From Escherichia coli (GTDB lineage: Bacteria; Pseudomonadota; Gammaproteobacteria; Enterobacterales; Enterobacteriaceae), in the NCBI RefSeq assembly GCF_003334255.1, contig NZ_QOWU01000077.1: DNA of 16,761 nt; one strand, 5' to 3'. The notes beneath the pieces were generated by a model, which saw only the letters and a program-made list of their open reading frames with translations, was not told the DNA's origin and did not search any database. Position numbers and translations under genes: made by a program. Below are positions 2,657-2,715 of the stretch, in pieces. Numbering within the stretch: position 1 is the stretch's first letter; every line of letters begins with the position of its first letter.

Positions 2657-2715
2657 AATCGTTTCCTTGTCGCATCATTTGGCCTCACCCGCGAGGCCGT
2701 TTCTTATTGTTTTTC

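Follow-up and report, generated by a model that had tools for sequence, protein, structure and literature searches.

Organization of the xap locus

The stretch of DNA analyzed here (the window, 16,761 nt) is part of the E. coli chromosome and shares 99.95% identity with K-12 over 5.9 kb. It carries, in this order, the lysV tRNA gene (plus strand), xapR (264-1148, minus strand), an open reading frame with a XapX domain (1189-1347, minus), xapB (minus), xapA (minus), yfeN (plus), yfeR (minus) and yfeH (plus). The coding sequence of xapA, encoding xanthosine phosphorylase, is located at 2716..3549 on the minus strand with its stop codon TGA at 2716-2718, and that of xapB, encoding the xanthosine/proton symporter, occupies 1400..2656 on the same strand with its ATG at 2654-2656. 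The positions of both are based on the list of open reading frames, the RefSeq annotation and a check by script, and the gene names follow RefSeq, as annotated in a K-12 record that is nearly identical.

The two genes are separated by a spacer of 59 nt (2657-2715, minus strand; coordinates obtained by script and from the open reading frame listing). Read in the direction of the xapAB mRNA, it starts with an A-rich tract of 17 nt, GAAAAACAAUAAGAAAC (GAAAAACAATAAGAAAC in the DNA; 2699..2715, minus), which is situated between the xapA stop codon and a GC-rich hairpin. This tract reads as five AAN triplets, and its complement forms a T-rich run 3' of the hairpin on the plus strand. The hairpin itself (2681..2698, minus) is made up of the 5' arm GGCCUC (2693-2698), the loop GCGGGU (2687-2692) and the 3' arm GAGGCC (2681-2686). 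It is followed by the segment AAAUGAUGCGACAAGGAAACGAUU (AAATGATGCGACAAGGAAACGATT in the DNA; 2657..2680, minus), which extends to the xapB ATG, is devoid of a U tract and contains the xapB Shine-Dalgarno sequence AAGGAA (2663-2668, minus; checked by script), of which AAGGA is almost invariant across an alignment of 35 spacers (A2, see below). On the mRNA, the hairpin is located about 17 nt past the xapA stop codon and 13 nt ahead of the xapB Shine-Dalgarno sequence.

Eight nucleotides past the stop codon of xapB, a consensus scan detected a terminator-like hairpin, GCGGCUCUGCUCUUCAGAGCUGC, with the U run UUUUAUGAUA (1359..1391, minus strand). This site yielded a tail score of 3.57 and a d-score of +6 and was used as the internal reference for a true U tract. 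The xapAB transcript probably ends here, ahead of the XapX reading frame and xapR. The formula underlying both scores is of the d'Aubenton Carafa type, and all values given here are to be read only on a relative scale that is anchored on the xapB terminator.

The hairpin in the K-12-like sequence

The initial annotation had described a perfect 6-bp stem, GGCCUC/GAGGCC, within the 59-nt spacer, and both its coordinates and its pairing were verified by script. RNAfold placed the 6-bp hairpin in the MFE as well as in the centroid structures of both strands. Five of the six pairs are G-C, the energy of the isolated hairpin amounts to -10.6 kcal/mol, and a possible seventh pair, a G.U, would close a CGGG tetraloop. 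When perfect stems comprising six or more base pairs, five or more of them G-C, and a loop of 3-8 nt were counted over the 16.7-kb window, such stems occurred at five places, and shuffled sequences yielded 3.4 per window, or about 0.012 per 59 nt. A weak MFE z-score was obtained for the spacer, at -1.7 over its 59 nt and -0.65 in a frame of 96 nt. Thus, the K-12 sequence by itself is mildly unusual and suggestive, and the strong evidence is provided by the comparison across species. The other four of the five stems counted are located at 4570-4588, 8869-8887, 10480-10497 and 15034-15051; the first of them is flanked by the convergent genes yfeN and yfeR and probably serves as the terminator of both.

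The absence of a U tract on the transcribed (minus) strand, likewise stated in the initial annotation, is borne out by the sequence AAAUGAUGCGAC, the 12 nt downstream of the hairpin, in which two U are present. The corresponding tail score is 0.26, compared to 3.57 at the xapB terminator, and the consensus terminator scan did not flag the minus strand at the hairpin. In E. coli, the hairpin thus does not have the U tract of a full terminator.

Conservation of the hairpin across enteric bacteria

A scan for XapA in one genome per species identified 80 loci, and in 60 of these a XapB homologue is encoded directly downstream of xapA; the spacers of these loci were extracted. All xapA-xapB spacers of 50-74 nt, which originate from at least 11 genera (Escherichia, Pseudocitrobacter, Citrobacter, Klebsiella, Enterobacter, Silvania, Huaxiibacter, Lelliottia, Atlantibacter, Phytobacter and Chimaeribacter), harbor, at the equivalent position, a hairpin with an energy between -10 and -23 kcal/mol. 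Typically, these orthologous hairpins start 9-17 nt past the xapA stop codon and finish 20-27 nt ahead of the xapB ATG. The sequences of the stems are unrelated, as exemplified by GGCCUC/GAGGCC, GACCCCG/CGGGGUC, GUGGCCC/GGGCCAC, AAGGCUCC/GGGAGCCUU and CAGGCUC/GAGCCUG.

For the comparison, a 9-pair helix was scored by explicit pair counting in A2, an unguided MAFFT alignment of 35 spacers. In this helix, 84.4% of the cells are paired, as opposed to 31-49% when the 3' partners were slid by 1-3 columns, and both-sided (compensatory) changes are found in eight of the nine pairs. In total, 40 doubly changed cells were counted versus 13.9 ± 3.1 in column shuffles, none of 500 shuffles reaching the observed number. 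A covariance model derived from A2 (R1) matched, in 549 kb of loci, xapA-xapB spacers only, and these on the sense strand; the alignment produced with the covariance model agrees with A2 (84-85% of cells paired in 35-39 orthologous spacers). RNAalifold, when applied to a longer MAFFT alignment (A3), missed the hairpin and returned a spurious 4-bp helix because stems of unequal length had been misaligned, and explicit pair counting and covariance-model alignment were therefore used. As judged from these alignments, it is the pairing and not the sequence of the xapA-xapB hairpin that selection keeps, and the hairpin is a real RNA structure that is conserved across enteric bacteria. REP/BIME elements or other dispersed repeats were ruled out, the spacer being single-copy and the matches of R1 being restricted to xapA-xapB spacers. 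Rfam 15 gave no gathering-score match in the window, no match at E ≤10 between positions 2400 and 3000, and none in the spacers of 11 related loci.

The spacers of Buttiauxella and Cedecea, which comprise 28-43 nt, have no hairpin, indicating that the element is dispensable for the operon. Yersinia and Budvicia possess non-homologous spacers of 135-153 nt, at the start of which long hairpins (-15 to -24 kcal/mol) are located; these more distant lineages thus lend support of another kind to a structure past xapA. In these loci (L061, L063, L066, L067, L071, L072 and L077), the spacer hairpin spans 15-20 bp, and a conserved second stem, GAGGGAA...UUCCCUC, is located directly ahead of the xapB ribosome-binding site; Rfam gave no match in the six of these loci that were scanned (L061, L063, L066, L067, L071 and L072). 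The spacers of Limnobaculum and Pragia (L021, L029 and L037; 98-116 nt) contain a Shine-Dalgarno sequence and a mini-ORF, MSVLMKLSVMLH*, which resembles the N-terminus of XapB (MSIAMRLKVMSF). The mini-ORF may have been left behind by a duplication or replacement of the 5' end of the transporter gene, or may code for a leader peptide.

Within E. coli, the spacer is carried by 4074 of 5426 complete genomes, and the 60-nt spacer occurs at a median of one place per genome with a maximum of two. The 60 E. coli records that were sampled fall into five identity classes, and the stem is kept in every sequenced representative. The changes observed between these alleles are confined to C-G to U.G, G.U to A-U, and the length of the loop. 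In the other 1352 of the 5426 complete genomes no match to the xapA-xapB junction was obtained; furthermore, xapA is interrupted by IS21 in one E. coli genome, and in a different genome xapB contains an internal stop codon. The xap cluster is accessory in E. coli and is repeatedly decaying.

The folded strand and the flanks of the hairpin

G.U pairs are tolerated in RNA, and at the same position the complementary strand receives an A.C mismatch. Among the distinct hairpins, 13 G.U pairs occur in the sense fold compared to two in the antisense fold. With the exception of Atlantibacter and, by a small margin, C. amalonaticus, every lineage has a sense fold that is at least as stable as its antisense counterpart, and about eleven independent events favor the sense fold versus one or two that favor the antisense fold. 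The asymmetry in G.U pairs indicates that the folded and selected molecule is the xapAB mRNA. The initial proposal of an mRNA processing or stability element, or of a partial attenuator, is partly supported by these findings in that the hairpin is conserved by compensatory changes and the mRNA strand is identified by the G.U pairs; the terminator-like reading of the antisense strand had, however, been overlooked.

The flanks of the hairpin differ between lineages. A sense U-rich tail with borderline terminator scores is present in the Citrobacter freundii-like and Klebsiella oxytoca-like loci (UUACUUUUUUGG or UUACUUUAAUGG) and in Silvania (AUUUUUUGCGG). Tail scores in these lineages range from 2.5 to 3.1 and d-scores from about -5 to +4, compared to +6 for the xapB terminator; the sense d-score of K-12 at the hairpin is about -55. 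E. albertii, Enterobacter, Huaxiibacter, Lelliottia and Chimaeribacter have kept the hairpin without a sense U tract. An A-rich upstream tract, equivalent to an antisense U-rich tail, is found in Escherichia and Enterobacter; it is less pronounced in K-12 than in E. albertii and Enterobacter, where it is strong. Neither U-rich flank is present in Huaxiibacter, Lelliottia, Chimaeribacter and one Enterobacter locus. Directly ahead of the hairpin, 7-10 of 12 nt are A in most spacers of Escherichia, Citrobacter, Klebsiella and Enterobacter. As the hairpin is the sole constant while the flanks vary, what is selected everywhere depends on the hairpin rather than a U tract. Due to the A-rich upstream flank, the plus strand reads as the hairpin followed by GTTTCTTATTGTTTTT, which is terminator-like in the consensus scan. 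The notion of a partial attenuator fits the family as a whole, given the U-rich tails in Citrobacter, Klebsiella and Silvania, but the K-12 copy has no such tail.

A possible barrier protecting the xapA message

In E. coli operons, a documented protective class consists of hairpins that mark the 3' boundary of a stabilized upstream gene and have no U tract; a protective structure was found in 26 of 34 such gene pairs, with conservation in Salmonella and Enterobacter, and malE-malF is the prototype (PMC5927463). Judged by the criteria accessible to sequence analysis, namely a conserved boundary hairpin without a U tract, the xapA-xapB hairpin belongs to this protective or attenuating intercistronic class. 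Similar to malE-malF and to the class that Dar & Sorek charted genome-wide in 2018, a stable stem-loop is located past the promoter-proximal gene, has no U tract and is conserved in relatives, and an excess of soluble protein over the membrane transporter would be expected, as for MalE versus MalFG. The xapAB element differs from the REP structure of malE-malF in that it is a single short and unique hairpin rather than a REP/BIME repeat. Most members of the Dar & Sorek class reside inside the downstream coding sequence, whereas the xapAB element is located in the spacer.

By analogy to these systems, we would give an even chance to the hypothesis that the hairpin serves as a malE-malF-type barrier to 3' exonucleases, favoring the xapA over the xapB message; possibly, it is also a very leaky terminator. 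According to this model, RNase E would cut in or ahead of the poorly protected xapB segment, and PNPase and RNase II would then degrade the transcript in 3'-to-5' direction back to the stem-loop, where they would stall. The predicted product is a translatable xapA-only RNA with a 3' end at about 2676-2680, which would outlive the xapB part. In lineages with a U-rich tail, the same hairpin would probably also terminate a fraction of the transcripts. In both cases, a single promoter would give rise to more phosphorylase than transporter message, from which we infer a higher XapA:XapB ratio. Considering the general size of a ribosome footprint, the gap of 17 nt past the stop codon would leave the stem outside the terminating ribosome. 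A stem of 6-7 pairs (-10.6 kcal/mol) is at the weak end for blocking PNPase in vitro, and the conserved A-rich tract has no role in the decay-barrier model. No 3' end of xapA or xapB is listed in the Term-seq data of Adams et al. 2021 (supplementary file 1); as these cells were uninduced, having been grown without xanthosine, and xapAB was barely expressed, the table speaks neither for nor against a role of the hairpin.

An operon of similar organization, paralogous to xapAB, occurs in Kluyvera, Citrobacter, Lelliottia, Yokenella and others (L062-L085) and consists of a xapA-like gene, a gene for a TsgA-family MFS transporter and a gene for a LysR regulator. Its XapA-like phosphorylase shares about 70% identity, and a GC-rich hairpin is present in the spacer of 41-50 nt between the genes of enzyme and transporter (e.g. 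L064, 3835-3873). The order of phosphorylase, hairpin, MFS transporter and LysR regulator is the same as in the xap cluster, and again the stem has no U tract. However, the stem sequence (GGCGGGC/GCCCGCC) is unrelated, there is no A-rich tract, the hairpin adjoins the Shine-Dalgarno sequence, which its outer UCC..GGA pairs could sequester as judged from their complementarity, and the TsgA-family transporter and XapB are not orthologous. More message for a soluble enzyme than for the membrane transporter encoded next is a logic that fits both hairpins alike.

Alternative explanations

Intrinsic terminators are commonly accompanied by an upstream A tract. The xapAB element shares such a tract, as well as a GC-rich hairpin past a stop codon, with intrinsic terminators that act as leaky attenuators, and it might be speculated that some RNA polymerases stop past xapA so that fewer reach xapB. 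The U tails of the Citrobacter freundii-like, Klebsiella oxytoca-like and Silvania loci, which score near the xapB terminator, are in agreement with this idea, but the E. coli mRNA, with two U in 12 nt and the scores given above for AAAUGAUGCGAC, differs from these orthologues and, on the antisense strand, is no more than terminator-like. Together with the five lineages that keep the hairpin without a sense U tract, and with the reliance of xapB on the xapA promoter, which Seeger et al. are said to have observed in 1995, this renders a leaky terminator or attenuator on the sense strand unlikely. The published description of the xap operon is in agreement with the dependence of xapB on the xapA promoter (PMC7205307). 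Alternatively, the element might act on xapB, either as a papBA-like 5' stem-loop following a cut by RNase E or by way of a narrowed standby region that sets xapB translation, which we regard as rather unlikely. Protective 5' hairpins downstream of RNase E sites are on record (PMC5927463). As in papBA, the spacer hairpin is positioned a short way ahead of the downstream ribosome-binding site, its end being located 20-27 nt ahead of the ATG in nearly all lineages, and in the paralogous operon the hairpin directly adjoins the Shine-Dalgarno sequence, which the outer UCC..GGA pairs could cover. However, RNase E processing is known for papBA, whereas for xapAB the distribution of U tracts among the lineages points to a role at a 3' end, the sense U tracts of the relatives being indicative of 3'-end and not 5'-end formation at the hairpin. 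In addition, RNAfold predicted no pairing of the E. coli hairpin with the xapB Shine-Dalgarno sequence, and the A-rich tract, as read by eye, does not offer a good RNase E motif of the RN|WUU type. A second helix, formed between 2667-2674 and 2640-2648 (minus strand), would enclose the xapB Shine-Dalgarno sequence and the AUG in a loop of about 20 nt (UGCGA/UCGCG in K-12, GCGAU/AUCGC in E. albertii). It is unsupported: 79% of the cells are paired versus 21-44% in slid controls, but this was reached in 96 of 500 column shuffles, and the 5-bp stem thus shows no covariation above that of the shuffles.

The T-rich run on the plus strand also raises the possibility of an intrinsic terminator antisense to xapB, consisting of the hairpin and GUUUCUUAUUGUUUUU, which would stop RNA from a cryptic promoter within xapB or read-through from the valU-lysV tRNA operon ahead of xapA. 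This site was flagged by the consensus scan, and strong antisense tails are present in E. albertii (UUUUUUUAUUGUUUU, d-score about +44) and Enterobacter (+19 to +34). Citrobacter and Enterobacter share the synteny of the convergent tRNA cluster, and plus-strand transcripts do reach into the antisense of xapR, in which a region of Rho termination has been mapped (Adams et al. 2021, supplementary file 2). We nevertheless consider a terminator on this strand quite unlikely. The distribution of G.U pairs (13 sense versus two antisense) is opposed to it, as several antisense stems would carry A.C mismatches; the antisense tail of K-12 is sub-threshold (tail score 2.32, d-score about -18), and the hairpin is kept in lineages without an antisense U tract. 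Moreover, a scan of the plus strand between 1894 and 2807 revealed no promoter-like site, an antisense 3' end is listed for neither xapA nor xapB in the Term-seq tables of Adams et al. 2021, and the site is situated 2.4 kb beyond the tRNA operon and past the mapped Rho-termination region. In a more elaborate version, the A tract and the hairpin would form a dual-use module, in which (AAN)5 of the mRNA serves the docking of a small RNA via the distal face of Hfq while the antisense terminator shields xapA. If this were true, a small RNA would control xapB separately from xapA, and xapA would be shielded from antisense transcription out of xapB or the convergent tRNA operon. Such a module would explain the conservation of the A tract in Escherichia, Citrobacter, Klebsiella and Enterobacter, which the decay-barrier model does not, but we hold it to be very doubtful.

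The palindrome might also be part of a protein-binding site in the DNA, belonging to an internal sigma-54 promoter of xapB that depends on RpoN and NtrC. Genomic SELEX located a peak for RpoN holoenzyme and NtrC in the xapA-xapB spacer (PMC8743547, Table 3), but at 36% of the maximum this peak is weak, and it is unvalidated. Between 2476 and 3153, no match to TGGCAC-N5-TTGCW with three or fewer mismatches was detected, and the best GG/GC pair in the spacer, as read by eye, is spaced by N9 and not N10. Since the stem sequences are wholly different from species to species but remain complementary and retain G.U pairs, the signature is that of an RNA and not of a DNA-binding site, and we deem a sigma-54 promoter extremely improbable. 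Finally, the hairpin might have no function in E. coli and represent what is left of a former xapA terminator in decay, or a palindrome that arose by chance. The weak fold z-score of the K-12 sequence, the spacers of Buttiauxella and Cedecea that do without the hairpin, and terminator-like flanks that vary by lineage as decay would predict are all compatible with this view. However, the compensatory changes, the presence of the stem in every E. coli allele sampled and its retention where both U-rich flanks have been lost indicate continuing selection on the pairing, so that a lack of function appears very unlikely.

Implications and neighboring observations

Taken as a barrier within the xapAB mRNA, the hairpin most likely represents ordinary and familiar fine-tuning of an operon, that is, one more example of a well-known class. 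Induction by xanthosine is bimodal, and the switch has been modeled with equal production of XapA and XapB from one mRNA, where XapB provides positive feedback by import of the inducer and XapA negative feedback by its breakdown (PMC7205307). An element that uncouples the xapA and xapB messages would alter the parameters of this model. The hairpin would also provide a small and well-conserved test case for how a membrane transporter is kept below its partner enzyme in enteric bacteria. A search of the literature, the scope of which did not extend to the original xap papers (PMC177358, PMC93943), revealed no paper that describes any such element, be it as a hairpin, a terminator or an attenuator, in the xapA-xapB spacer.

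Several further features of the region were observed. Binding of HusR (YnfL) near xapA was considered and is irrelevant to the xapA-xapB hairpin, as it is located in the spacer between xapA and yfeN. The Rho-termination region antisense to the 3' end of xapR, at about 264-270 of the window on the plus strand (MG1655 2521597), has high read counts (Adams et al. 2021), as would fit transcription that continues from the valU-lysV tRNA operon into the antisense of xapR. The open reading frame of 52 aa between xapB and xapR (1189-1347, minus strand) matches the XapX domain family TIGR03510 (E = 6e-18) and is annotated as DUF1427 in RefSeq; from its sequence, the product looks like a small hydrophobic protein that is conserved in the xap cluster. 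Finally, K-12 strain CJ236 (L001) has a unit of about 155 nt between lysV and xapR, annotated as an RtT sRNA-like repeat, that is not present in the window. When positions 1-200 of the window were compared with 446-740 of L001, positions 1-198 matched 446-643 of L001, and positions 138-6000 of the window correspond to 739-6601; from the overlap of these matches it follows that the strains differ in the copy number of the repeat.
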